Source: an uncultured Bacteroidales bacterium | GTDB taxonomy: Bacteria; Bacteroidota; Bacteroidia; Bacteroidales; Paludibacteraceae | Direction of reading: 5' to 3' | DNA: 59,638 bases | NCBI GenBank assembly: GCA_937911235.1 | Contig: CALDPN010000086.1 | Coordinates: 1-59,638, forward strand | Shown here: piece after piece, positions 4,671 to 18,256 of the stretch | Numbering within the stretch: position 1 is the first letter of the stretch | Layout of the letters: every line of letters starts with the position of its first letter | Made by a program: the position numbers and the translations under genes | Notes under the pieces: model-generated | What the model was told of the DNA's origin: nothing | What the model saw: the letters and a program-made list of their open reading frames with translations, nothing else | Databases searched by the model: none

Positions 4671-6119
4671 TTAGCTTAAGCCAAACAAGTCATCCATTGT
4701 GATTTCTTTTTGAACTAGTCCACTATATTTACCATATTTGATACCATATGTGCTAATTATGGTTAGGTGTATGGCTTGTTTTGCAGAGAGTGTATCTTTG
4801 AGAGTTTCAATGCGATGTCTAAGTTTTGAGTCTTCTTCTTTGTCAATATTGTAGATGTCGCTTGCAAATTTCATTTCACAAAGATTTACAATATTATCTT
4901 TTCTAATAATTAGAAGGTCTATTTGTGCTCCTTCTCGGTTGTCATTGCCTTTTATGCTCCAAGCTGATATAGAGCAGTTGAGACCTTTTATTCCAAGAGC
5001 ATTTTTGATGTTATCAATATGTTGCCAACAAACTTCTTCGAATGCAATACCTCTCCAATACTTTAAAATGTCTGAAGTAATATTTTCAGTCATATAGTTT
5101 GTTTTGTTACTGTTTGCTTCTACATGCTTAAGCCAAAACAAACAGAAGTTGTCGATAAGTTTATATTTTACTACCTTTCCGTGCTCATTGTATGGAGTGT
5201 ATTTTTGTATGAAATCGCTTTCTATAAGTGATGTTAATGTATTTGTAAGTCCTCCTCCAAAAGGAATTCCAGTTTCTGCTGAGATTTCTTCTCTAGTGTA
5301 ACCTATATGTTTTGTAGAAAGTAGTTTGATTATTTTTTTGCAATCTTCTGGATTGCTGAATATTGCTTTAAATAGTCTATTGTATTCGTCTTTAAGTCGA
5401 GGATTCCTTCCAAAAAGTATTTCATCAATATTTGCAGATAGGCTAAAACCCTTTTTGAAATATCTTAGATAATATGGAATTCCCCCAAATACCATATATG
5501 CTTGAATAATGTCGTAGCGTGACATTATAATATTTTCGTGTTCAAAATATTCTTCACATTCTTTTAAAGTAAAAGGTGATAATTTAATCTCGTCTGTAAG
5601 TCTGCCATATAGTCCACCTTTATTACGAGATAAGTTTCCTAATATCCATGAAGTCGCACTTCCGCATACAATAAGCATAATATTATCCCTGCCGCTACAC
5701 CAACCATTCCAAAAACTTTCAAATGCAGGTAAAAATCCAGAGCGTGGGGTATCCATCCAAGGAAGTTCATCTAAAAAGATTACTTGTTTAGAGCCATCGT
5801 CAAATCTTATCAGTAGTTGTTTTAGTTGAAAAAAAGCTTCCATCCAAGTTTTGGGTTTGTCGTAGCCTTCTAAACCATGACTCAAAAGTGTATAGTAGAA
5901 ACTTTCTAATTGTGTTCTCATAAGATTCTTCTCACTTTCTTGATCTACAGGTGAAACTCCTGTGTGTTGAAAGGTGAAACGATTCTTAAAAACCTGATTG
6001 ATTAGAAAGGTTTTTCCAACGCGTCTTCTGCCATATACTGCAACAAATTCTGAACGGTCACTGTGATAGAGTTTTTCTAGCTCTTCTATCTCTTTTTTTC
6101 TGCCTATTATTACACTCAT
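4671..6119 (-). CDS. AAA+ ATPase of the archaeal-ATPase/DUF234 type
   Basis: Walker A VYGRRRVGKT and Walker B VIFLDELPWM. Size (~480 aa) and the C-terminal region are typical of ATPase+DUF234 proteins. Confidence 0.75.
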   Translation of the reverse strand: MSVIIGRKKEIEELEKLYHSDRSEFVAVYGRRRVGKTFLINQVFKNRFTFQHTGVSPVDQESEKNLMRTQLESFYYTLLSHGLEGYDKPKTWMEAFFQLKQLLIRFDDGSKQVIFLDELPWMDTPRSGFLPAFESFWNGWCSGRDNIMLIVCGSATSWILGNLSRNKGGLYGRLTDEIKLSPFTLKECEEYFEHENIIMSRYDIIQAYMVFGGIPYYLRYFKKGFSLSANIDEILFGRNPRLKDEYNRLFKAIFSNPEDCKKIIKLLSTKHIGYTREEISAETGIPFGGGLTNTLTSLIESDFIQKYTPYNEHGKVVKYKLIDNFCLFWLKHVEANSNKTNYMTENITSDILKYWRGIAFEEVCWQHIDNIKNALGIKGLNCSISAWSIKGNDNREGAQIDLLIIRKDNIVNLCEMKFASDIYNIDKEEDSKLRHRIETLKDTLSAKQAIHLTIISTYGIKYGKYSGLVQKEITMDDLFGLS

Positions 6120-6138: not shown

Positions 6139-6146
6139 CAAATATA
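6139..6146 (-). promoter_or_regulatory. -7 box (TATATTTG on minus strand) for the ATPase gene
   Basis: Plus-strand CAAATATA lies 20 nt upstream of the minus-strand ATG at 6119. Confidence 0.3.
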
Positions 6147-6236
6147 TAAATAATTTTTCTATTTGGCAAAATATATACCTATTTATTCTGCCAAATAGAG
6201 TGTAAAATGGTTGTATGTGGCAAGATAAGCCCTTGT

Positions 6237-6932
6237 TTATTCTGCCATCATATCCATACTGAATACTTGGTCTACGCCTTCGGCTGCTTGTTTTTCTTCG
6301 GTTGCTTTGCTTTCTTCTTGCTCTCCTGTTTGGAATGCTTGATATGCTTCTTCCACTTCTTTTTCTTTGTCTTCTTTTAGCTTTTTAACGGTGCCCATGT
6401 GCCAATCATAGATTTCTTGTAGTTTGTCTTTGGCAAGTTGCATGTTTTCTTCTGAGGCACCATTCATTTTTAATGCCACTTTACTACTACCATAAGAGAA
6501 AATAGCTTCAAGTTTTGTGTTGGTAATGTCGAATTGAGCCTTAATATATTCCATACACACATCGTGACGCTCTTTGTTCATTTTGGGCATGGTGTAATAT
6601 ATTACTATTTCATCTTCGCCAGTTATTTCATTTTTCTCTGTTTTTTCTTCTATTTCAAATTCTGGGTGTTCTAGTTTAATTGCTTTTGTGATAGGAAGGA
6701 CATATTCTTTGTCTTTAGCAGTAATGGCAAATTGTTTGTCATTTGGAATTGCCACAGATGCCACTTCTTCTAGGTTTAGTTCTTTACCTTCTATTTTAAT
6801 GGTGGCAGAAAGGAGTGCCATTGGATCTGCGGTGATACATAAATTTGACAAATGAAAATAAAACAGCATAGCGTGGCCGTTCATTTTTTGTTTGGTTTCG
6901 TCAAATAGTTCGTTAATAGTTTTGTTATTCAT
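6237..6932 (-). CDS. hypothetical protein with ribosome-recycling-factor-like layout and acidic tail
   Basis: By-eye alignment to Frr/RRF. [52 protein letters not shown] matches [69 protein letters not shown] matches LPPLTEERRKDLTKIVR. Lies 15 nt downstream of the DUF4280 gene on the same strand. Confidence 0.4.
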   Translation of the reverse strand: [231 protein letters not shown]

Positions 6933-6947
6933 AACTTGATGTTTTAA

Positions 6948-7337
6948 TTATTTACCTGTTGTGTTTGCTACGTGCCCCGGATTTGTAATTGAGATATTAC
7001 CACCGTAGGCACACATTGTTTTACAATTGTCGAGTAGTGCTGGCATGTTTGATACCAATTCTTTGCCTCCGGGAGCCCATGGAGACACAATCACTGGGAT
7101 GCAAGGCATAGGTGTTAACACTCCCATCGCTGCAGATGTGGCAGATGCTACCGTAGGATTTGCCATAGATTGGCACATGCCAAATGGCATTATGTTCATC
7201 ATTGGTGCAAAGTCCATTATATTAGCCTTGGGTTTGTTTTGAATCATTGGTCTCAATGGCACGGTAACCATAAGTGTGGATGGTGCCATTCCGAAACTGC
7301 ATTTTAGCATTGCTCCCATGCATACATACTTAGCCAT
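6948..7337 (-). CDS. DUF4280 family PAAR-like protein
   Basis: Hallmarks GAMLKCSFGMAPSTLMV, FGMCQS, PCIPV..SPW, ALLDNCKTMCAYGGNISITNPGH. Size 129 aa. Confidence 0.8.
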   Translation of the reverse strand: MAKYVCMGAMLKCSFGMAPSTLMVTVPLRPMIQNKPKANIMDFAPMMNIMPFGMCQSMANPTVASATSAAMGVLTPMPCIPVIVSPWAPGGKELVSNMPALLDNCKTMCAYGGNISITNPGHVANTTGK

Positions 7338-7375
7338 AACCTTAATTATTAAATACTTGTGATTAATACTGTGAG

Positions 7376-7383
7376 CAAAGGTA
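7376..7383 (-). promoter_or_regulatory. candidate -7 box (TACCTTTG on minus strand) for the PAAR-like operon
   Basis: Plus-strand CAAAGGTA lies about 40 nt upstream of the minus-strand ATG at 7337. Confidence 0.25.
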
Positions 7384-7630: not shown

Positions 7631-8851
7631 GTGCTAAAAACAAATGGCATGGTAAAAAGATATGAAATAGAAACGGTAACGTTACAAGAGTGGGGAACCG
7701 ATATTTACCCTAAACTTTCTTGGTTTAAACAAAGCAAGGTTGCTTCTGCTCATGTTATGGTTGTGGGTTGTGGTGCACTAGGCAACGAGGTAATAAAAAA
7801 CTTGGCGCTTTTTGGTGTGGGCAATATTGTTTTGGTAGACTTCGATGAAGTTGAATACTCAAATCTTACTCGTTCTATTCTTTTTTGTAGTGATGATGCA
7901 AAAATGCATCGTTACAAGGTGGAAGCTGCTGCGGAGAGTGTAAAAAGAATCAATCCTAATATTAATGTGACCACGATAGTGGGCGATATAAGTAATAGTG
8001 TAGGACTAGGACTTATTCGTAAAATGAATGTGATAGTGGGCTGTCTAGATAATAGATGGGCTCGTTATACACTAAATCGCTTGTGTATGCGTGCAGGAGC
8101 TCCTTGGGTAGATGGAGGAATTAACGCTCTTGAGGGAGTGGCAAAGGTGTTTATCCCTGGCAAAAATTGTTATGCTTGCACACTTGAGCCTTCTGCTCTT
8201 GCAGAATTGAAGCGCAGTACTTCTTGCGCTGTGGCAATTAAAAGAAATCAAGAAAGTGGCAGAGTGCCTACTACTCCAGTGGTGGCATCTATTATAGGTG
8301 CAGTTCAGGCACAAGAGGCTATGAAACTGATTCATAAAGAAGAACTCCAAGGTGGAGAACTTACATCGCTTTGTGGCAAAATGTTTTGCTACGATGGAGC
8401 TTCTATGACAGTGAGGTTGGTCTCTCACGAGGCTTGGGACGAAGATTGTCCAGTTCACGAACATTGGTCTCCTGTGATAGAATCTCCTCTTACCAATCTT
8501 AATACAGTAGAAGAAGTTTTAGCATATATAAAAGATAAATTTTCAACAGACTCTGCCGAAATAGTTTTAAGAAATCAGGCATTTGTGGATTTTATTGAAG
8601 ATAGAATTACTGGTGAAAAATACAATATAATGCTACCGGAGGCTGAGGTGTCTAGTTTTATAGAAAATGATGAGGTGCTGCGCATCAAACCAATGGGGCA
8701 GTTCTATCAACATACCATACGTGGTATCAATGAAGATTTTAAATACAAAAACCTAACACTAAAACAACTTGGCATTCCAGAGCAAGATGTGTTACACGTT
8801 AGGGATGAGAGAGAATTTTACGTTGAGTTAGGGTCAACTCCTAACTTCTAA
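7631..8851 (+). CDS. ThiF/MoeB/E1-like adenylating enzyme (ubiquitin-activating-like)
   Basis: Rossmann motif VMVVGCGALGNEVIKNLALFGVGNIVLVDFDEVEYSNLTRSILF (GxGxxG...D.D.V..SNL.R). CYAC Zn-type motif followed by STSCAVA. About 130 aa of extra C-terminal domain. Start may be the ATG at 7649. Confidence 0.85.
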   Translation: MLKTNGMVKRYEIETVTLQEWGTDIYPKLSWFKQSKVASAHVMVVGCGALGNEVIKNLALFGVGNIVLVDFDEVEYSNLTRSILFCSDDAKMHRYKVEAAAESVKRINPNINVTTIVGDISNSVGLGLIRKMNVIVGCLDNRWARYTLNRLCMRAGAPWVDGGINALEGVAKVFIPGKNCYACTLEPSALAELKRSTSCAVAIKRNQESGRVPTTPVVASIIGAVQAQEAMKLIHKEELQGGELTSLCGKMFCYDGASMTVRLVSHEAWDEDCPVHEHWSPVIESPLTNLNTVEEVLAYIKDKFSTDSAEIVLRNQAFVDFIEDRITGEKYNIMLPEAEVSSFIENDEVLRIKPMGQFYQHTIRGINEDFKYKNLTLKQLGIPEQDVLHVRDEREFYVELGSTPNF

Positions 8852-8883
8852 CTCCTAACTCCTAACTCCTAACTCCTAACTTT
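8836..8883 (+). repeat. tandem heptamer array (AACTCCT) about 6.9 units
   Basis: AACTCCT AACTTCT AACTCCT x4 AACTTT. The E1 stop codon TAA (8849-8851) lies inside the array, and the next ATG (8884) follows it directly. Confidence 0.9.
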
Positions 8884-9666
8884 ATGAAAAACACAAACAT
8901 ATCAGAATTGAGGGCAGAGGTGCTACTAAATCACTTATATCCAGAGCAAACAGATAACTGGATAGTAAGGGATAAGGGTACTTTTTATCGTAATTATAGT
9001 AGCGATATTTTGCAATTAGATGAAAAACTATCTCAAGTTTCTCTTTCACGTGATGGTTTGTTGCGTTTGCTTCCTCAGGGATTGATAAGTGCAGAAGATG
9101 ACCTTAGAGGCAAAGATTTTCCAACAAAATATGAGGAACTTACTCGTCGCAAAAACAACTTAGAAGAACTTTTTGTTCCATTCGATTCTTGGCGTTTTAG
9201 AGATGCAGTAAGAGATGAAGAGGATTTAGCAGACCTACTTGCAAATAAGCTAAATATCTTACTTAAAACATATTACGGAGTAGATATAGAGTCGGAGCAA
9301 AATCCAGATGTGAGAGAACTGATGAAAATGTTGCCTTTAGCAAGTAGTATTCGTGGCAATTATCACAAGATAGGTGATATACTAATGGTCATTTTAAAAC
9401 ATAGAGTTACTACTCACATTTCTTGCTACAATTGGAGCGACAAATTTATTGATACACAACCAATGGTAAGTTACAAGGTTTGGATTTCTAAACTTACAAA
9501 AGAAGAATATATCAGCCTTGAAAAAAATATAGAAGACTTGGTAAGTTTTATTGTTGAATGGTTTATCCCTTTTGATACACGTTGTGTAATAGAACTTAAA
9601 ACCGAAGAAAAAGCTTCGTTAAACCACACAATGCTTCTAAACTATAATACAAAGTTGAGTTTATAA
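8884..9666 (+). CDS. hypothetical protein; possible TssG-like baseplate component (weak)
   Basis: Sits in the operon between the E1 and TssK-like genes. Only faint resemblance (IRGNYHKIGDILMVILKHRV...W) to the central region of TssG. Confidence 0.3.
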   Translation: MKNTNISELRAEVLLNHLYPEQTDNWIVRDKGTFYRNYSSDILQLDEKLSQVSLSRDGLLRLLPQGLISAEDDLRGKDFPTKYEELTRRKNNLEELFVPFDSWRFRDAVRDEEDLADLLANKLNILLKTYYGVDIESEQNPDVRELMKMLPLASSIRGNYHKIGDILMVILKHRVTTHISCYNWSDKFIDTQPMVSYKVWISKLTKEEYISLEKNIEDLVSFIVEWFIPFDTRCVIELKTEEKASLNHTMLLNYNTKLSL

Positions 9667-9688
9667 ATTTTCTAAATACTTAAATAAG

Positions 9689-10831
9689 ATGAATGTAAAT
9701 GCAAAAATAGATTGGCATGCCGGAATGGAGCTTACTGCTCAAACATTTATCGAATTAGACAAATGCTTAGAAAGAAATAGGCAAATAACAAACACAGTAG
9801 CATGTGGAAATCATTTTGGAATCCTTCCTACTACTACATTTTCTTGCAAAGGTGTGTTTGTAAAAAAGACATTGGAGATAACTCCACTTTCATTTATGGC
9901 ACTTATGCCATCTGGTAACCTACTTCATGTAGATGAAAATGTGGTGGTTGATATTCCTATTTTGTATGGAAAGGAATATTATTTAGGTTGCAAGCAAGGT
10001 GATAAAACCCGTAGTTTCGACAAAGAACAAGTGCCTTTTGTATCTCCAGTGGCAGAATGTGGTATTTACACTTTCGAAGATTTGGCGTCTGCTCAGGTGT
10101 TCCCTTTAATGAAATTTAAAGTGAACGAGGGTGTTTTCTCTGTAGATAAAGATTATATACCTCCATTTTTAACCTTAGCTTTAGATACACGTTTTCAAGA
10201 CTATATAAACACTTTTGCTTCAAAAATTTCTGTTTTAGCAAAACATAAAAATCTAGAATCATCAGAGGCGAAACGTTGCTTTCTACGTTATGCAAATGTA
10301 CTTAAAAACTACAGCACTACACATAGAGTTCAACATTTTATAGAACTACTACAAGAAATAGCAGCTGCTGTAGAATTTTATATAGTTCAAGTATTTACAG
10401 AGCATGTAATTGAACAAAAGAGTTATTCTCCATACGATATAGTATCTTACCTAACATGGCTAGATGGATATTTACATGGTGCTGCCACAATTCTAGATGG
10501 AGTTGTGCTAGAAGACAAATCAATAGACTTCGATGCTCTAAAACTACAGGTTAAAGAAGAAATTTACGAAAAAGTTTATCCAGAACTTAAAGAGGCGTTG
10601 TACAATGAATTGCACGAAGAACTTAAGAAAGAAATTTGGGATGAGCTATATTCTTCACTTTCAGATTACATCAATGGTAATTTCAGAAAAGAAATCTTTG
10701 AATTGTTAGAAGGAAGGCTTTCAGAAGAACTATACGAAAAATTGTATAAGACCTTGTACGATGGATTATACAATGCTCTATACGTGCCTGCTCCGGTAGA
10801 GGAAGAAGAAGAGTTTTTACCTTTAATTTAA
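9689..10831 (+). CDS. TssK-like baseplate protein with atypical helical-repeat C-terminus
   Basis: N-terminus IDWHAGMELTAQTFIELD resembles the TssK signature W.EGM.L.PQHFQQ.D. The last ~100 aa are EL/LY-periodic repeats. Confidence 0.45.
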   Translation: MNVNAKIDWHAGMELTAQTFIELDKCLERNRQITNTVACGNHFGILPTTTFSCKGVFVKKTLEITPLSFMALMPSGNLLHVDENVVVDIPILYGKEYYLGCKQGDKTRSFDKEQVPFVSPVAECGIYTFEDLASAQVFPLMKFKVNEGVFSVDKDYIPPFLTLALDTRFQDYINTFASKISVLAKHKNLESSEAKRCFLRYANVLKNYSTTHRVQHFIELLQEIAAAVEFYIVQVFTEHVIEQKSYSPYDIVSYLTWLDGYLHGAATILDGVVLEDKSIDFDALKLQVKEEIYEKVYPELKEALYNELHEELKKEIWDELYSSLSDYINGNFRKEIFELLEGRLSEELYEKLYKTLYDGLYNALYVPAPVEEEEEFLPLI

Positions 10832-10836
10832 AGCTT

Positions 10837-11274
10837 ATGATTACTCGTATTCCACTACAAATAAACTCAGGTGTTTTAGCCACTTATACAGATGTAAAAG
10901 AATCTATTGATGCACATGTAGAGTTGCTACTCACCACACCAGTAGGTAGTTGTGTCTCTGATCCAAACTTTGGTTTTATCTTAAATAATCTACGTTTCGA
11001 GATATTTAACGAAAACGAAGGTGTGGTGTTGAATGCAGACGAAGACCCTTCTGAACTATACGAGAAAAAGGTGTCTGGTTCTTCTAGAAATGTAAACACT
11101 TTTGCTATAGAACTTAAACAACTCATTGAACATTACGAACCAAGACTAGAAGATGTGCTTGTTACAATGTCATATGTGAGAGAGCATCGCAAAATTTACA
11201 TAACTATTAAAGGTGTTATCATAGAAACACAAACAAATTATCAGTATCAAACTTCTATTAGAATTTGGCAATAG
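10837..11274 (+). CDS. GPW/gp25-family baseplate wedge protein (TssE-like)
   Basis: SIDAHVELLLTTPVGSCVSDPNFGF matches the gp25 core I...L.T..G.R...P.FG. Size 145 aa. Confidence 0.7.
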   Translation: MITRIPLQINSGVLATYTDVKESIDAHVELLLTTPVGSCVSDPNFGFILNNLRFEIFNENEGVVLNADEDPSELYEKKVSGSSRNVNTFAIELKQLIEHYEPRLEDVLVTMSYVREHRKIYITIKGVIIETQTNYQYQTSIRIWQ

Positions 11275-11277
11275 ATT

Positions 11278-12972
11278 ATGAGAAAAAAAATATTTGCTAC
11301 AGGAGAGATGGCTAAAGAGCTTCAAAAAGAAGCTATGGCTATTTGGCGTATGGGAAGTAATGAAGAGAACTTTGAGGGGATGGAAAATGACCCAGTGGTC
11401 TCATTACTTATGACAGCCTTGGCGTATCAAGAATATACAGCTGATAATGAACTTTCTCGACTAAAAAATGAGGTACTAGAAGACTTCTCTCGTATGCTTA
11501 TCCCATACGAATTATGTCATGCGAAACCTGCAAGTGTGTTGGTGCGAACAAACACAGAAGAGCAAGTAAATAAGGTGTCGCTTCATTCTGGAATGTCATT
11601 TACGCTTAGTGAAAATAAATTCAATTTTATGCCACTTCTAGATACCACAGTTTACAATGCAAAACTAGACTCAGTGGTGCGACTAGATGCTCGTAGATGG
11701 AAGGTGAGCATAAACTTCAAAGAAGAAATTTCTTCTCTAGAGGGTTTCTCATTCCTTGTTGATAATCACAACTTCAAAGACCTAAACATTAGCCTCGGAG
11801 GTAAACGTATTTCTCTTATAAAACCTTGGCACTATGCAAATTTGCCACTTTCTAAGTGTTTCTCTATAGATTCAATGCTATACAATGAAACCTTGGCATT
11901 TGACGCTAGCACCACATGGTTCGATTTATTTGCTCAGCAAAACAAACGCATGTTTGTGGTAGAAAAATATGCAACAGACGATATTTTTACTTGCCCTGTA
12001 GACAAGATAGATTTAGTTTTTGAATTTGTGGGAATAACAGATGATTTTGTCTTTGATAAATCTCAACTAATCATAAACACAGTTCTACTTGTAAATACAA
12101 GTTTAAAAAATGCTACACTGTCTGTAAACAATCCTATTGTGCGTATTGCCGACGAAGAAGGAAATGCCTCAGAAAAACTTTTGCATTTAATGCGTCCTTC
12201 TTCTGAACAAATGTATAAAAACATTTCTTTCACTCTTCGTCGTTCTGCAATAGAGCGTTTCAATGTGGATAGTTTATTAAGACTTCTACACTGCCTAATA
12301 GACAAATATTCTACAGACTACTACGCATTTATGCAGATAGACAGACTAAAAAATGGTTTAGAAGTAAATCGTTTATATCAATGGCTTGTAAATCTAGCAA
12401 AATACCTAGAAGATTCACCAATGTCTGTGTCTTCTGGTGTGTATTTGTTACTTAAAAAAGGCAAAGATAGTTTGCTTGAAGACGAAAGTCTCACACTACA
12501 ATACCTTATCACTCAAGGTGCTATGATAAACCCATATTTAAGTACACGTGCGCAGTTCAATGTGCCAGTAGGCATCTCAATGCAAAAAACTAGCGTGGTG
12601 GCAGAGCCTGTTTTAGGCTTGGATGAAGTAGTTGGAGTGGATGTTCAAAACTCAATGTCTAGATATTATATGGTCACAAACAACAGACTTGTTACACCTG
12701 CCGATATCAAGATTTTCTGTTACAACGAGCTCCTAAGAAGATACAATATAGATTCTAGTATTATTCGCAATATAGTGGTGACAAATGCAATTCATTCAGA
12801 AAGAGGTCATTGTGGTTTTGAAACCAAAGTAGAGATACTTATTATAGATGATGTATTTGTCAAACGTAGTTTGGCAGGAAAAATAAACGAAGTAGAACTT
12901 ATTCTACAAAAAATGATAGAGGTTCGTAGTTCTTTCGCCTATCCAGTTCAAGTGAATATTCGTATTGTTTAA
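11278..12972 (+). CDS. TssF-like baseplate protein
   Basis: NDPVVSLLMTALAYQEYTADNELSRLKNEVLEDFSRMLIPYELCHAKPASVLV parallels the TssF N-terminal block DP.VERLLEGFAFL.AR....LDD.FP.....LL..L.P..L.P.PS. Size 564 aa. Sits immediately after the gp25-like gene, as in tssE-tssF. Confidence 0.55.
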   Translation: MRKKIFATGEMAKELQKEAMAIWRMGSNEENFEGMENDPVVSLLMTALAYQEYTADNELSRLKNEVLEDFSRMLIPYELCHAKPASVLVRTNTEEQVNKVSLHSGMSFTLSENKFNFMPLLDTTVYNAKLDSVVRLDARRWKVSINFKEEISSLEGFSFLVDNHNFKDLNISLGGKRISLIKPWHYANLPLSKCFSIDSMLYNETLAFDASTTWFDLFAQQNKRMFVVEKYATDDIFTCPVDKIDLVFEFVGITDDFVFDKSQLIINTVLLVNTSLKNATLSVNNPIVRIADEEGNASEKLLHLMRPSSEQMYKNISFTLRRSAIERFNVDSLLRLLHCLIDKYSTDYYAFMQIDRLKNGLEVNRLYQWLVNLAKYLEDSPMSVSSGVYLLLKKGKDSLLEDESLTLQYLITQGAMINPYLSTRAQFNVPVGISMQKTSVVAEPVLGLDEVVGVDVQNSMSRYYMVTNNRLVTPADIKIFCYNELLRRYNIDSSIIRNIVVTNAIHSERGHCGFETKVEILIIDDVFVKRSLAGKINEVELILQKMIEVRSSFAYPVQVNIRIV

Positions 12973-12988
12973 TAAAAAAAATAAGATT

Positions 12989-13306
12989 ATGGAAGAATTT
13001 TTCTTAAACATAGTTTATAAAAACAAGAAGGTACGCTTTCGCATTATAAATCCAGAAGCACCTCTTAGTACGTTAATGAGCAACCTACGCCATGCCATAG
13101 GTAAAGATGGAAGACTTATTTTCGATTTCCCATCTGTAGATAATACAGGTGCTCCACTAGATTATTTCTTTGGAAAAGAAGACGCTGAGATAAATGAAAT
13201 TAGAGTTTTACGTCCAAGAGTAGGTAAAGTGGATCAAACTTTAGCCGACTATAGCATCAAAAATGGCGATACAGTATATTTAATTCCAGACCCATTCCCA
13301 GGATAG
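12989..13306 (+). CDS. small ubiquitin-like (beta-grasp) protein candidate ending in Gly-stop
   Basis: About 105 aa from the ATG at 12989 (the track start at 12965 is TTG). Alternating beta-like segments KVRFRII...LADYSIKNGDTVYLIPDPFPG, with the C-terminal residue Gly directly before TAG. The stop is 2 nt before the E2 start. Confidence 0.5.
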   Translation: MEEFFLNIVYKNKKVRFRIINPEAPLSTLMSNLRHAIGKDGRLIFDFPSVDNTGAPLDYFFGKEDAEINEIRVLRPRVGKVDQTLADYSIKNGDTVYLIPDPFPG

Positions 13307-13308
13307 TT

Positions 13309-13869
13309 ATGAAAGAGTTAACTGGACGAAATAGACGATTGCAACACGAATGGAAAACCTTAGAAAAAAGGCTAGCCTCAAGGTCTGATATAGACTTTTC
13401 CATTTCAAAACTAAATGCACAAGGTATGCCAATAGGCTATGAAGTAACATATCATGTGAAGTCTATTTGTGGAGTTACAAACATAGAAAACTTAGACAAG
13501 CCAGGCATTGATAATGAACCAATATTTGCAGAAGAATTTAAAATGCAAATAGAAATACCAGAAGATTATCCTTGTATAGATGCAATGCCAGAGTTTTGCT
13601 TCAAAACAAAAGATTCAGAGGGCAATTCAATACCTCACCCTTGGCACCCAAATATTAGATATTTTGGAGAAATGGCAGGTAGAGTTTGTTTAAATGCACC
13701 AGATAGTTATATGGATTTGGTATGGTATGTAGAGCGAGTGGCTCTATATCTAAGATACGAACTATATCATGCCAAACAAGAGCCTCCTTATCCAGAAGAT
13801 ATTACTGTGGCACGTTGGGTACTTCGCCAGGGAGAACCAATGAGGTGGATATTTTTTAATCAAAAATAA
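13309..13869 (+). CDS. UBC-fold ubiquitin-conjugating (E2)-like protein
   Basis: EDYPCIDAMPEFCFKT...HPWHPNI (HPN at 13645-13653)...GRVCLNAP (Cys127 at 13687-13689). This reproduces the E2 pattern YP..PP...F...i.HPNi...G.iCLdil. Confidence 0.7.
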   Translation: MKELTGRNRRLQHEWKTLEKRLASRSDIDFSISKLNAQGMPIGYEVTYHVKSICGVTNIENLDKPGIDNEPIFAEEFKMQIEIPEDYPCIDAMPEFCFKTKDSEGNSIPHPWHPNIRYFGEMAGRVCLNAPDSYMDLVWYVERVALYLRYELYHAKQEPPYPEDITVARWVLRQGEPMRWIFFNQK

Positions 13870-13876
13870 TAAAGTG

Positions 13877-15055
13877 ATGAATAAAGCTGTTTGTAAATTA
13901 GTTTGTTCTTTGGTTGTTTTAACAACTGCATTTATGGCATCATGTGCTAGTAAAAAGGCCATTGAAATGCCTATAAAACCATACCAAGTAATAACAGTAT
14001 CAGAAGAAACTCCTTATACAGAAACAATTTCTACCAAAGAAGGGGCTAAAGATATGGATATGCTCCTTAAAATAGAGTATAGCGAGAACGATAATACATT
14101 AAATGTAAGTATTACTTCACAACATCATTTATTTGGTTTTAAAAACAATTCACTTTATAAAAATGTAATCAGAAACAAGAAAATTTCTCTAGTACGACTT
14201 CCATATAAAGTGGTATCAGAACCAGATATGACTTATAGATTGTCTAAAAATATCCGTAATAATATTTCTGGTTGTAACGATAAACATACATTTAAAGCCT
14301 GGATTTCTACTACAGGGTTGCATTCACAAATGTCAGACTATGAAATGGTTACAGAAATTCTAACCCAAAAGTTTGACATTGTAGGCGATACCACTATTAC
14401 AGTTACTTTAGGCGATATTATGATGATGGAGCGTTCGGTATCTAAGAAAAATCGTTACGACCTTACTTTCTATACCAACCTAAACAAATCATATGTGGTA
14501 AATATCAAGCGCAATCCGTGTTTAGGTAAGGAAGCAGAACTAGATTCTACCCAAACTTTGTTGGATGAAATTAAAGAAAACTATACATCACTAGCAAGTA
14601 AATACCCAAATGTTGAGAATCTTACACAAGAAACTCTTTTAGCTTTAGAAGAGGTGAGGGTGAAATTTGAAACTAAATACGAAAAGAAAGAAACTACAAA
14701 TGAATGCCCAGCCATAGCATCTATGCTAGAAAACTATAATACATACGTGGATTCTATAGCAAAACTAGCAGACGTGAAAGCTGAATTTGCTCATAAAAGA
14801 CCAAGACTTTCAATGCCGGCAGACCAACTATTAGCAGTGGCTCGTATGGTAGATACCAATGTGGCTTCATGGCTAGTGTCAAATGACGTGGTAGAAAAAG
14901 CCGATTTAGTTAAGCGAAACAGACACCTTATTGATGATATAAACAAGAAAATATCTAATAAAATGAGAATGGATACAGAGCAAACCAAAGCTTACGCTGT
15001 ATTCAAAAAAGCAGAAAGATACTTCAACGAAACTTGTCAAAACAAAAAGAAATGA
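13877..15055 (+). CDS. lipoprotein, unknown function
   Basis: Signal peptide with lipobox LTTAFMASC. ATG at 13877 (the track start at 13874 is GTG). 4-nt overlap with the next gene. Confidence 0.55.
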   Translation: MNKAVCKLVCSLVVLTTAFMASCASKKAIEMPIKPYQVITVSEETPYTETISTKEGAKDMDMLLKIEYSENDNTLNVSITSQHHLFGFKNNSLYKNVIRNKKISLVRLPYKVVSEPDMTYRLSKNIRNNISGCNDKHTFKAWISTTGLHSQMSDYEMVTEILTQKFDIVGDTTITVTLGDIMMMERSVSKKNRYDLTFYTNLNKSYVVNIKRNPCLGKEAELDSTQTLLDEIKENYTSLASKYPNVENLTQETLLALEEVRVKFETKYEKKETTNECPAIASMLENYNTYVDSIAKLADVKAEFAHKRPRLSMPADQLLAVARMVDTNVASWLVSNDVVEKADLVKRNRHLIDDINKKISNKMRMDTEQTKAYAVFKKAERYFNETCQNKKK

Positions 15056-15873
15056 GAAAGTTTTTTGTCTTAATATTATGCTTTGTTTGCTTTACGGCTA
15101 CTTGGGCGCAAGATACTCCTGCAGAAGCAAAAGTGGACCCATTTGCAGCACTAGAGGTGAGAGGTAGATTGTCTCTTTTTATAGAAGAAATAGAAACATT
15201 ACTTGCCAATGTGTCTTCTGCAAAACAAAAGCAACTTAAAAAAGCAGAAAAGTCGCTTAAAGCAGTAGAAAAGAAGTGGACTTTGTATAGCACTGCTCAT
15301 GGAGATGTTATTGCTTCAGAAGAAAGCCTAATGGAAGTAGTTGTGGCATACGAAGAGCGCAAACAATTATTGGCAGACTCTATAGCATCACAACTTCACA
15401 AACTCGACTCTTACGATAAGTTTGAGAGTGCAGAAGTTTTTATAGAATCTCAAATAGAACCTTATAACGAACTATATAACCAAGCAGTAGAATACTCTAT
15501 GCTAAAACAAACTGCATCACTACTAGAAAAACTTAAAACCAAAGAAGGACTTACTTTTAGTGATATTACAGCTCGTTACGAGGACTCTAAAACTATATCA
15601 GAAGAATATCCAGCCCTTAAAAAGAGAATGGAAGAATTAGAAGAGGAGTATATAGAAATTAAAGGACTTTCAGAAAAAATACAGGCTGCAGAATATAAAC
15701 CATTTCTAACTAGGATAAAAGATTACCTATATAGTTTTGCTGCAGTGGCAATGCTACTTATGTTTGCCAATATGGTACAAGCAAAAATACAAGCATCCCA
15801 ACAAATGCGTAAGAGCGCCAAAGAGTATCAAGAATTATTAAAGAAAAACGAAGAAGAAATACCTTCCATTTAA
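15052..15873 (+). CDS. exported coiled-coil protein with C-terminal membrane anchor
   Basis: ATGA overlap start gives MRKFFVLILCFVCFTATWAQ as signal peptide. Long helical E/K-rich body. Hydrophobic segment YLYSFAAVAMLLMFANMVQA near the C-terminus. Confidence 0.5.
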   Translation: MRKFFVLILCFVCFTATWAQDTPAEAKVDPFAALEVRGRLSLFIEEIETLLANVSSAKQKQLKKAEKSLKAVEKKWTLYSTAHGDVIASEESLMEVVVAYEERKQLLADSIASQLHKLDSYDKFESAEVFIESQIEPYNELYNQAVEYSMLKQTASLLEKLKTKEGLTFSDITARYEDSKTISEEYPALKKRMEELEEEYIEIKGLSEKIQAAEYKPFLTRIKDYLYSFAAVAMLLMFANMVQAKIQASQQMRKSAKEYQELLKKNEEEIPSI

Positions 15874-15880
15874 ATATATA

Positions 15881-18256
15881 ATGGCTATGAAAACTTGTAA
15901 ATTTTTATGTTTAGCATTTTTAATGCTAATAGCAGTAGGTTGTTCAGAAGGTAAATTAGATAACACTACCAGTGAAACTGAAAATCTTGAAATTTCTGAT
16001 ATTCAATTCGATGAGAATTATAAGGATTTCTCAATAGGGGTGCATTTCAAAGATGCCTTTATGCCAAAGAAAAGACTTCACATTGGCAAGATAAAACTAA
16101 ATGTTACAGAATATGATTCTGATATGAATAAGATTACAGAATCTGCTCAGCCAATTTTCAGAGGTGCTAAAAACCTTCATTCAGAAAAGATAAAAGATTT
16201 AGGCATCAAAGGTCTAGTGCTAGTGGACTTGTCTTTAGACGAATTGCAAATAGAAAAAGAGAAAGGGGCAGTAGAAAGTTTGAGAGAGTTTGTTTTTGAA
16301 AACCAACTATATGTAGCCTTTATGCAAGATGGCAAGGTGAGCCCAACTTATCCTGCTACAGATTATGTTCTAGACAATTACTTTATTCCAAATCAAGCTC
16401 CTAAAAAATTGTTTGGTAGTATAGTTGCTAAGATGGATGAGATGAAAAGTGAAGATTCTGAATTTTTCTCACAAACAGCAACAGAAAATAAAGTACTTAT
16501 TGTGTTTTCCGACGGACATATCTACAATGGTGATAAACCTATAGATCCTAAACACTTTGAGTATCAAGAAATATTACTAAACCAAACAAAGCAAGACGAT
16601 AAACTACAATTTTGTTATGTAAACTTCAACGAAGAAAAAGACGATGAGTTTGCAGTGGAGAATGATGTAGAAAACATATTCACATACATTTGCAAAGGCT
16701 TGGGTGGAGCGTATATTCCAGACGTGGATATGAAACAAATAGCTACAGAGGTAATGCGTGGTAGAGATAGTGAAAAAGTGGATTTTAGACTAAAACTTAC
16801 AAATCCAGATCATAAAATTTACCGTGGCGACGAAAGAATACTTAAGGTTAATTGTATGTATGATGGAGAACTACTTTTCACAGGTTCTAAATCATATTCT
16901 TTAGGTAGTGTGTATAAACCTGTTATAGTCAATGGTTCTGGTTTATATAGCGTATTAATACAAGCCGCAGTATTTACATTAATATTAGTATTATCCATCT
17001 ACGTGGTATTTCAACTAATAGAACCTTATGTGAAATATCGTATCTTCAAGTATAAATACGTAACCAAATATACAGGGCCAAATATGAGTTGGAGAGGCAT
17101 CCAAGTGCCAGATTCATGCTACTATTGTAAAACACCATTCGAGATAGGCGACGAGATAGTAGTGAAATGTGAGCACGTTATGGATATGTCTTGTTGGAAA
17201 GAAAATTTATACAGATGCCCTGAATATGGCAGAAGATGCAATTTAGGAAAGCACTATTACAACGACAAAAACATTTTCGATAAGAAAAATGCACCTTATT
17301 ATATGAAGTGGCTTTTAGCTGGTACATTGGCAGGGTTCGTAGCATGGTTCTTCTTTATATTAGGCACCTTCCACTCAGATCTGTCATTTATAAATGGAAT
17401 ATATGATAAGGTTTCACAATTTGACCCTTTAAGAGATATGGTGTTTGGTTTACACAATAATGTAACATCAGGCATGTTTGCTGCACCATACTTTGGTTTC
17501 TTTATGTGTTTCTGTTTAACCCTTGCCTTAAGTTTACTTTCTAGTCATGGTAAATGGTTGTACAAACGCACAGTTGTGGTACTTATAAAATCTTTAGTCG
17601 CAGGTATATGTGGTTATCTTACATATCTATTAGTAGTGTTGGCACTAATCGCATTCAAGCTAAAAGGTTATTATTATATGATAGACTGGATACCATGGGC
17701 ATTAAATGGTTATATAGTGGCATATGCAGTAGCATTTAAAACAGATATTAAACTGAAAAAAGCATTAATGGGTGCAACTATTTCTATGGGATTCTCAATA
17801 GCCTCAATGTATCTTTGGAATTATTCAACACATTCACACATAGATACTAGAGATTTATTATTGGTAAGTTGTTTAATATATGGCATCGGCTTAGCAGCCA
17901 GTCTTGCTATAAATTTTCCACAATCTGAACGCTATTTTATAAAGGTGGAAGGACCAATTAAAACTATGGAGTTGGCACTTTATAAGTGGATGAACGCACA
18001 AGTTATAAACCGCTGCGTTACCATAGGTAAGTCTGTGGATTGTAATCTGCAAATGTCTTGGGATATAAATAGTGCCATTGCCCCAAAACAAGCAGAACTA
18101 AAAATGATAGGAGGTAATATCTATCTTATTCCACTTGAAAACGGCGTCACTTTCAAAGGTAAACCAGCTATCATAGACAAACGCATTCACCTATATCACG
18201 GCGACAAGTTTGTGATAGGACAAACTAAGTTCACATATGTAGAACACGATGTGTAA
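15881..18256 (+). CDS. multidomain membrane protein: lipoprotein signal, vWA-like domain, TM, RING-like Zn finger, polytopic TM block, FHA-like C-terminus
   Basis: Lipobox LIAVGC. vWA-like strands GLVLVDLSLD and VLIVFSDG. C413-x2-C-x13-C-x-H-x5-C-x7-C-x6-C453 (17117-17239). About six further hydrophobic helices. C-terminal TIGKSVDCNLQM...AELKMIGGNIYLIPLENGVTFKGKP...LYHGDKFVIGQTKFTY has the FHA topology pattern with divergent pThr-binding residues. Confidence 0.6.
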   Translation: MAMKTCKFLCLAFLMLIAVGCSEGKLDNTTSETENLEISDIQFDENYKDFSIGVHFKDAFMPKKRLHIGKIKLNVTEYDSDMNKITESAQPIFRGAKNLHSEKIKDLGIKGLVLVDLSLDELQIEKEKGAVESLREFVFENQLYVAFMQDGKVSPTYPATDYVLDNYFIPNQAPKKLFGSIVAKMDEMKSEDSEFFSQTATENKVLIVFSDGHIYNGDKPIDPKHFEYQEILLNQTKQDDKLQFCYVNFNEEKDDEFAVENDVENIFTYICKGLGGAYIPDVDMKQIATEVMRGRDSEKVDFRLKLTNPDHKIYRGDERILKVNCMYDGELLFTGSKSYSLGSVYKPVIVNGSGLYSVLIQAAVFTLILVLSIYVVFQLIEPYVKYRIFKYKYVTKYTGPNMSWRGIQVPDSCYYCKTPFEIGDEIVVKCEHVMDMSCWKENLYRCPEYGRRCNLGKHYYNDKNIFDKKNAPYYMKWLLAGTLAGFVAWFFFILGTFHSDLSFINGIYDKVSQFDPLRDMVFGLHNNVTSGMFAAPYFGFFMCFCLTLALSLLSSHGKWLYKRTVVVLIKSLVAGICGYLTYLLVVLALIAFKLKGYYYMIDWIPWALNGYIVAYAVAFKTDIKLKKALMGATISMGFSIASMYLWNYSTHSHIDTRDLLLVSCLIYGIGLAASLAINFPQSERYFIKVEGPIKTMELALYKWMNAQVINRCVTIGKSVDCNLQMSWDINSAIAPKQAELKMIGGNIYLIPLENGVTFKGKPAIIDKRIHLYHGDKFVIGQTKFTYVEHDV

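Follow-up and report, generated by a model that had tools for sequence, protein, structure and literature searches.

We describe a highly diverged paralog of ribosome recycling factor (RRF), here called RRFL, that is encoded in a type VI secretion system (T6SS) locus of an uncultured Bacteroidales bacterium (Paludibacteraceae; assembly GCA_937911235.1) and that, in related genomes, is the constant last gene of a module comprising the spike protein gene vgrG, a gene for a protein we call u602, and RRFL. We tentatively propose, by analogy with other contractile systems, that RRFL might act in the cytoplasm as a chaperone or adaptor that is specific to its module and assists assembly of the VgrG-u602 spike. 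The DNA analyzed, hereafter the window, is the stretch of 59,638 nt at positions 1-59,638 of contig CALDPN010000086.1. In it the RRFL gene lies directly downstream of a gene for a DUF4280/PAAR-like protein, and both open reading frames (ORFs) were found at the positions assigned to them in a first-pass annotation that had been made from the sequence letters:

6237-6932, minus strand: RRFL (protein P0001), an RRF-family protein of 231 aa
6948-7337, minus strand: DUF4280/PAAR-like tip protein (P0002) of 129 aa

Profile, sequence, and structure comparisons all matched RRFL to RRF. The protein scored 52.5 bits against the Pfam family PF01765 (cut-off 29.7), with residues 35-193 aligned to model positions 13-163 of 164, and RRF was the sole family in a Pfam scan that matched none of DUF4123, DUF1795, and DUF2169. 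A phmmer search of the PDB returned RRFs only (1ge9, E = 1.5e-5), in an alignment that took in the bundle of helices as well as the inserted domain. When an AlphaFold2 (AF2) model built from 50 relatives (predicted local distance difference test score (pLDDT) 90.4, predicted template modeling score 0.80) was compared with the PDB using Foldseek, the top 26 matches were all RRFs, the best being E. coli RRF (1ise; E = 2.8e-12, template modeling score 0.86, root mean square deviation 2.5 Å). The predicted structure shows the RRF fold, with a three-helix bundle and an inserted beta/alpha/beta domain forming an L shape, along with a third helix that is lengthened and a tail, rich in acidic residues, in which 15 of the final 46 residues are D or E and which bears a short hydrophobic motif, FSMDMM, at its end. 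The first-pass annotation had aligned the protein with RRF over the bundle and the inserted domain, had remarked on a Glu-rich tail, and had named profile and structure comparison as the way to check the assignment; on each of these points the comparisons agree with it.

RRFL is not the housekeeping RRF of this bacterium, as the same annotation had argued while naming a canonical frr elsewhere in the genome as a further check. Such a gene is present directly after pyrH on another contig (C47), scoring 211.9 bits with Pfam, and RRFL itself reached only 23.2 bits against the frr equivalog model TIGR00496, far under its cut-off of 149.1; together the canonical pyrH-frr pair and the failed equivalog score rule out a housekeeping identity. 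A search of 1.84 billion representatives with a profile of the RRFL family recovered 345 clusters at 50% identity and never reached canonical RRFs. A broader profile kept the two groups apart, giving 195-285 bits for RRFL genes, 58-63 bits for canonical frr genes, and no scores in between. In a phylogenetic tree the split between RRFL and canonical RRF, supported at 100/100, corresponds to about 3.3 substitutions per site, and RRFL is not nested within the frr of Bacteroidales. RRFL is therefore a separate clade and a highly diverged paralog of RRF. Relatives 50-99% identical to P0001, from gut Bacteroidales, carry the pipeline label 'ribosome recycling factor', which for RRFL is a misannotation. 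Other origins of the ORF were considered as well: chance is ruled out by the 110 clusters at 50-99% identity and the roughly 345 at 50% identity, a search for a phage origin gave no significant BFVD match, and identity with a known defense effector was rejected because the sole PADLOC match, 20.8 bits over 58 E/K-rich residues, was judged to be noise.

We examined the residues on which RRF function depends by aligning 129 RRFL family representatives with seven canonical RRFs, using E. coli-type numbering. At R28, R31, R110, R129, R132, and R133, which we take to be the 23S rRNA-contacting basic residues of domain I, P0001 has L, T, H, E, F, and S, respectively. Across the family, position 28 is L in 96 of the 129 sequences, position 31 is K in 109 (T in P0001), position 110 is R, Y, or H, position 129 is E or D in 102, position 132 is K, Y, or F, and position 133 is A, V, or T; the YYG motif of canonical RRFs is lost. 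The only canonical features kept are R109 (127/129), the hinge proline, and the K-E-x-E end of helix 3. P0001 contains one arginine in 231 residues compared with 14 in the genome's own frr product, and its net charge is -18 (isoelectric point (pI) 4.8), close to the family median of -17 (pI 4.7), against -4 to 0 for canonical RRFs. Because the rRNA-binding arginines are lost and the net charge is strongly negative, canonical ribosome binding by RRFL appears unlikely, which counts against the earlier suggestion that the protein is possibly ribosome-directed.

Set beside canonical Frr as a whole, RRFL shares the two-domain L-shaped fold, the hinge proline, an EER-type arginine (R122), and the end of helix 3, and it differs in a third helix and tail that are about 40 residues longer, in an invariant HPEF loop of its own, and in a T6SS gene context instead of the pyrH-frr pair. 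The invariants specific to the family include a C-x-x-A-x-P-x-x-L-L hinge and the loop, H89-P90-E91-F92 in domain II, of which P90 is present in all 129 sequences. The lysines K16, K83, and K189 are invariant or nearly so, and the C-terminus consists of an acidic linker, a short hydrophobic stretch such as FSMxM or SMKL, and further acidic residues.

A secretion-linked context had been proposed for RRFL, and the gene does lie inside a type VI secretion locus. On long contigs of relatives the locus order is ClpV-TssB-TssC-Hcp x3-(Hcp-like u143)-VgrG-u602-{DUF4280, RRFL}-E1(ThiF)-u260-TssK-TssE-TssF-Ubl-E2-u393-u279-~790 aa, where VgrG is 1000-1490 aa long and Ubl is a ubiquitin-like protein; the T6SS subtype iii gene set (TssB, TssC, Hcp PF17642, ClpV, VgrG, TssE, TssF, and TssK) is complete in these related loci. 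In the genome under study the locus is split, with TssC to u602 on a separate contig (C49, 14170-25259) that ends inside u602, and the half carrying TssK, TssE, and TssF in the window. A DUF4280 search of all species genomes gave 80 loci, 69 of them of this T6SS type. RRFL is within the locus in 58 of the 69, and in the 10 of the remaining 11 genomes that were searched (all but that of locus L085) it was found elsewhere every time, mostly as a result of contig breaks or with VgrG-u602-RRFL sitting apart. RRFL is thus near-universal in this T6SS architecture, being present in all of the 68 genomes, out of 69, that the searches covered. The system itself is patchy within the order, and no RRFL was found in 400 evenly sampled genomes of the order.

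The placement of RRFL relative to DUF4280 is variable. The two genes adjoin in 39 of the 58 loci found via DUF4280, and across loci they occur in either order, on opposite strands, with a PEGA-domain gene between them, or with VgrG after RRFL. Since these loci had been found through DUF4280, we also carried out a survey free of that bias, searching 201 Prevotella-like genomes with the RRFL profile, which detected 23 RRFL genes in 13 genomes. u602 was directly upstream of RRFL in 19 of the 19 loci fetched, with a DUF4280 gene, a PEGA-domain gene, or both intervening in three main loci, and VgrG was upstream of u602 wherever the fetched DNA extended that far. DUF4280 was within the VgrG-u602-RRFL run in only about 3 of these 19 loci, most of which are orphan [Hcp-like]-VgrG-u602-RRFL islands without it. 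Searching the same 201 genomes for u602 returned the 13 RRFL genomes plus one more. Copy numbers of RRFL and u602 were equal (6:6, 3:3, 2:2 in three genomes, and 1:1), none of the 187 sampled genomes of the genus that lack u602 carried RRFL, and genomes with 2-6 modules had only 1-2 copies of DUF4280.

These results shift the partnership from the one first envisaged. DUF4280 had been regarded as the defining partner of RRFL, a place that belongs to u602; the accompanying list of roles (cargo, adaptor, or immunity protein) stands, but it applies to the VgrG-u602 module and not to the PAAR-like tip. RRFL as a general partner of DUF4280 is rejected on two counts, as DUF4280 occurs without RRFL in loci L086-L097 and RRFL occurs without DUF4280 in the orphan modules.

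The modules of a single genome are anciently diverged, with identities between paralogous copies of 28-44% for RRFL, 37-62% for u602, and 26-37% for VgrG, and each module therefore keeps its own RRFL. The genes that follow orphan modules encode TerC, an M20 peptidase, BipA, a histidine kinase, or STAS and SpoIIE proteins; these are housekeeping or regulatory genes, and the module therefore ends at RRFL. Mean pairwise identity across loci was 0.29 for VgrG, 0.36 for RRFL, 0.47 for u602, 0.69 for DUF4280, and 0.83 for TssC. The divergence of RRFL tracks that of core genes (rho 0.5-0.8), unlike cassette-like swapping, although mirror-tree correlation did not discriminate among partners, as every locus protein correlates with RRFL.

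u602 is about 600 aa long. Searches for its family in Pfam, NCBIfam, and the PDB (by sequence and by profile) gave nothing significant, pointed to no enzyme, and recognized only a coiled coil at 177-293. An example of the gene is the following:

L018:11140-12945: u602

Relatives with E <= 1e-5 fall into 1,492 clusters at 90% identity, and all names among the best 120 listed are 'hypothetical protein'. u602 always comes after VgrG in this T6SS type, it aligns end to end in all loci, and its invariant residues are mostly glycines. The AF2 model (pLDDT 79.8) has a pair of helices at the N-terminus, a long helical hairpin (186-302), long Gly-rich extended segments of high confidence and little secondary structure, and about 80 disordered residues at the end. 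Foldseek returned nothing significant for this model, with recurring weak local matches to the trimeric beta-helical sarcoglycan tower, the R2 pyocin spike, and VgrG, and hhalign of u602 with VgrG gave one 22-residue beta-helix-like match at 1.6% probability. We consider that u602 is probably a trimeric fiber or a beta-helical spike extension. In the u602 of orphan modules, a segment corresponding roughly to profile positions 341-426 is duplicated internally.

The DUF4280 protein was recognized with ease. P0002 scored 115.6 bits against PF14107, whose cut-off is 26.3, with 1-108 of the 109 model positions aligned, and 49.8 bits against the PAAR-like IglG model of NCBIfam (NF041248), and Cys13, Cys55, Cys79, and Cys109 together with the Gly/Pro pattern are invariant among its relatives, which confirms the DUF4280 Cys/Gly signature reported in the first-pass annotation. 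Membership in the DUF4280/PAAR-like group is indicated by the full-length match, the Cys ligands, and, in relatives, a VgrG in the same module. The protein is Met-rich (16 Met in 129 aa), and its relatives in the 80 loci, other phyla included, are 61-100% identical to it, a cross-phylum conservation that is unusually high for a 129-aa protein. Among them are the DUF4280 proteins of loci L086-L097, in Firmicutes, Acidobacteriota, Acidimicrobiales, and a Thiodictyon metagenome-assembled genome, which are about 63-68% identical to P0002; no Bacteroidales T6SS genes and no RRFL were found near them, and four of these loci have a weak VgrG-like neighbor. Francisella IglG, with its partner IglF, is likewise a DUF4280 tip in a non-canonical T6SS with a large uncharacterized partner. 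P0002 is without the IglF-binding N-terminal extension of IglG, its match spanning IglG positions 57-170 only; neither RRFL nor u602 has a detected relation to IglF, and RRFL comes after u602, not after DUF4280.

Each spike module has the gene order [minor Hcp-like]-VgrG-u602-RRFL, and we hypothesize that one shared, highly conserved DUF4280 protein would cap all spike variants. A single tip serving every variant would explain the strong conservation of DUF4280. RRFL, in this reading a non-ribosomal descendant of RRF, would bind its cognate u602, perhaps also the C-terminus of VgrG, keep u602 soluble, and aid its trimerization or its loading on VgrG before firing; likely contact sites would be the HPEF loop of domain II and the hydrophobic-acidic tail at the C-terminus. 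We infer u602 as the physical partner, and the chaperone or adaptor activity itself, from the organization of the module and from its resemblance to known systems. Phage fiber genes precede genes for dedicated assembly chaperones (T4 gp37/gp38, lambda stf/tfa, Mu S/U), and T6SS vgrG genes precede adaptor genes such as DUF4123, DUF1795, and DUF2169. With T6SS adaptors (DUF4123 Tap-1/TecT, DUF1795 Eag, and DUF2169) and phage fiber chaperones (T4 gp38/gp57A and lambda Tfa), RRFL shares the gene position after a presumed client, and, like them, it is small and cytoplasmic, occurs once per module, and diverges with the module, but it has no sequence or fold relation to any of them.

Several observations weigh against this proposal. 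The gene order, in which a small acidic protein comes last, after a putative client, suits an effector-immunity pair just as well, and the orphan modules contain no other effector candidate, leaving u602 or the VgrG extension as possible toxins. In one genome (G578), the sole exception to the pairing, u602 is followed not by RRFL but by a REC-SpoIIE gene. No u602-RRFL fusion was found among the best 120 of the 1,492 u602 relatives, and the structural matches from which u602 is read as a trimeric fiber are non-significant (best Foldseek E 0.07). In about 12 loci, moreover, the RRFL stop overlaps the E1 start codon, so that a tie to the ubiquitin-like module is possible.

The main alternative, possible if on balance unlikely, is that RRFL is instead the cognate immunity protein of a toxin of the module, either u602 or a variable C-terminal extension of VgrG, which it would neutralize in the cytoplasm of the producer and its sister cells; as an acidic, tRNA-shaped molecule, it could mimic the substrate or target of the toxin. 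Consistent with such a role, RRFL closes a self-contained VgrG-u602-RRFL island in which no further candidate for an effector or an immunity protein is present, every module has one RRFL and a genome can have up to 6 diverged modules, an arsenal-like arrangement, and the protein is small, cytoplasmic, very acidic, and among the fastest-evolving of the locus. Yet neither u602 nor VgrG showed a toxin family or fold, and u602, with its end-to-end alignment and invariant glycines, is unlike polymorphic toxins. RRFL also tracks the core-gene phylogeny. In gut Bacteroidales, orphaned immunity genes are frequent; RRFL was found without u602 in none of the 187 u602-negative genomes of the genus and in none of the 400 genomes of the order.

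That RRFL is delivered with the spike, as cargo or as a structural rider, we consider improbable. In its strong version this explanation would have RRFL disrupt ribosome recycling in the target cell, and it draws on the adjacency of RRFL to the tip protein in 39 of the 58 loci, on the preservation of the RRF shape, domain arrangement, and hinge residues (P116 and R122), and on the conserved C-terminal peptide, which could dock on the spike. It is countered by the replacement, in nearly all members, of five of the six arginines that contact rRNA, the remaining position being usually Lys and in P0001 Thr, and by a net charge of -17 to -18 with a single arginine in P0001. Moreover, no immunity candidate is adjacent to RRFL, the gene is conserved like a core gene rather than being strain-variable, and orphan modules exist without DUF4280.

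A partnership of RRFL with the E1/E2/Ubl/RING module, as its substrate, its regulator, or a bridge from the spike to the conjugation enzymes, seems quite improbable. In favor of it, E1, Ubl, and E2 are present in all main loci with RRFL, which immediately precedes E1 in 17 of 46 loci (with the overlap of stop and start seen, e.g., in L017), and several lysines of RRFL are invariant or nearly so. Orphan VgrG-u602-RRFL modules, however, lie far from E1, E2, and Ubl, the copy number of RRFL follows u602 and not the single E1, and in operons as long as these, neighboring genes often overlap at their starts. We also give very little credence to a scenario in which the module toxin (u602 or the VgrG extension) would hit ribosome recycling or tRNA-shaped substrates in prey and RRFL would be a decoy immunity protein evolved from the toxin's target, which, as an acidic mimic of RRF or tRNA, would absorb the toxin in producer cells.

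In the literature that we searched, we found no paper linking RRF with T6SS, PAAR, or DUF4280 and no report of an RRF fold in an adaptor or chaperone role. RRFL appears to be the first case of an RRF fold taken from translation into a contractile injection system. For genome annotation this means that each carrier genome has two apparent frr genes, one of which is actually a secretion-system part. For the T6SS it defines VgrG-u602-RRFL as a new conserved three-gene spike module, present in up to six copies per genome, for all of which a single PAAR-like tip is proposed. For the study of RRF itself, RRFL is a natural experiment that separates structural residues (the hinge proline and R109) from functional ones (R129, R132, and R133). 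The role of RRFL is directly testable since there are cultured carriers, namely Mediterranea massiliensis, Caecibacteroides pullorum, Bacteroides mediterraneensis, Millionella massiliensis, Prevotella sp. ne3005, and Parabacteroides distasonis An897.

The RRFL-bearing loci were compared with the known T6SSs of gut Bacteroidales. In the T6SSiii architectures GA1-GA3, the order is Hcp-VgrG(~600 aa)-TagA-TssB-TssC (Coyne et al. 2016, PMC4714493), and RRF, ThiF, and ubiquitin are mentioned neither in that paper nor in its supplements. Both kinds of locus combine TssB/C, a Bacteroidetes-type Hcp (PF17642), ClpV, TssE/F/K, and VgrG in one gut Bacteroidales locus; those with RRFL differ in a VgrG of 1000-1490 aa, in u602, in RRFL, and in the E1/Ubl/E2 set. 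Judged by gene content, the RRFL-bearing architecture, which has been little studied, is distinct from GA1-GA3. Near-identical copies of the Bacteroidales locus were seen in contigs binned as Flexilinea (L054), Akkermansia muciniphila (L057), Lachnospiraceae (L060), and 'bacterium' (L061), which suggests either errors in binning or the sharing of a mobile element among human-gut samples.

Within the window, the second half of the T6SS locus lies beside the DUF4280 and RRFL genes on the opposite strand; its genes were identified with Pfam and NCBIfam, and it also adjoins RRFL in related loci:

7631-18256, plus strand: divergent T6SS operon E1(ThiF)-u260-TssK-TssE-TssF-Ubl-E2-u393-u279-791 aa

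The DUF4280 and RRFL ORFs are in one reading frame, separated by a TAA stop and a 15-nt spacer, and are bracketed by two candidate signals:

7376-7383, minus strand: candidate promoter of the DUF4280-RRFL unit, a Bacteroidetes-type -7 box (TAnnTTTG, TACCTTTG) 39 nt before the DUF4280 ATG
6158-6199, minus strand: candidate terminator, a 16-bp hairpin about 40 nt past the RRFL stop, then an A/U-rich stretch

The box is weak evidence because its motif is not enriched across the window (101 occurrences, 86 +/- 9 expected). On the minus strand no TAnnTTTG box occurs within 6146-7376, and hence none between the two genes. The hairpin has a folding free energy of -23.4 kcal/mol (z -4.2), and none of 200 shuffled sequences folded equally well; it is a candidate terminator separating RRFL from the STAND gene described below. 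The two genes are probably co-transcribed, as had been claimed at the outset: the positions of box and hairpin fit, both of them features read from the DNA sequence.

The STAND gene lies beyond the hairpin, with its own TAnnTTTG box at 6139-6146:

4671-6119, minus strand: STAND/AAA ATPase of 482 aa, PADLOC candidate defense family PDC-S27 (635.8 bits)

Together with four genes for secreted proteins, it occupies the place held by u602 and VgrG in relatives. These four genes, at the start of the window, encode signal peptides, and one belongs to DUF6175; none occurs between u602 and RRFL in relatives. The STAND gene is missing from most related loci, and in L009 and L010 it is 99% identical where RRFL and the flanking T6SS genes are only about 81% identical. 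Because of this disparity, it looks like a recently mobile defense gene inserted in the spike region, outside the module.

Two gene families recur beside the module in other genomes. Genes for PP2C-type SpoIIE phosphatases with STAS or receiver domains stand directly after orphan modules in about 4 of 20 loci, and they could be a phospho-regulatory switch for the orphan-module spikes:

L156:8399-10722: SpoIIE phosphatase gene after an orphan module
L162:5721-6569: SpoIIE phosphatase gene after an orphan module
L167:1110-3440: SpoIIE phosphatase gene after an orphan module
L169:2877-4049: SpoIIE phosphatase gene after an orphan module

In many loci, a PEGA-domain protein of about 450 aa is encoded between DUF4280 and RRFL or beside RRFL; it was looked for in the genome of the window and not found there:

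L048:5408-6781: PEGA-domain gene
L029:11177-12535: PEGA-domain gene
L017:8626-9981: PEGA-domain gene
L067:10387-11739: PEGA-domain gene

The region between RRFL and u602 is variable as well. In L021 (11207-16162) it holds genes for two FGE-sulfatase-domain proteins and a CsgG-like lipoprotein, and the equivalent region of L005 encodes an 897-aa BNR/ricin-lectin protein; these proteins may be strain-specific cargo.

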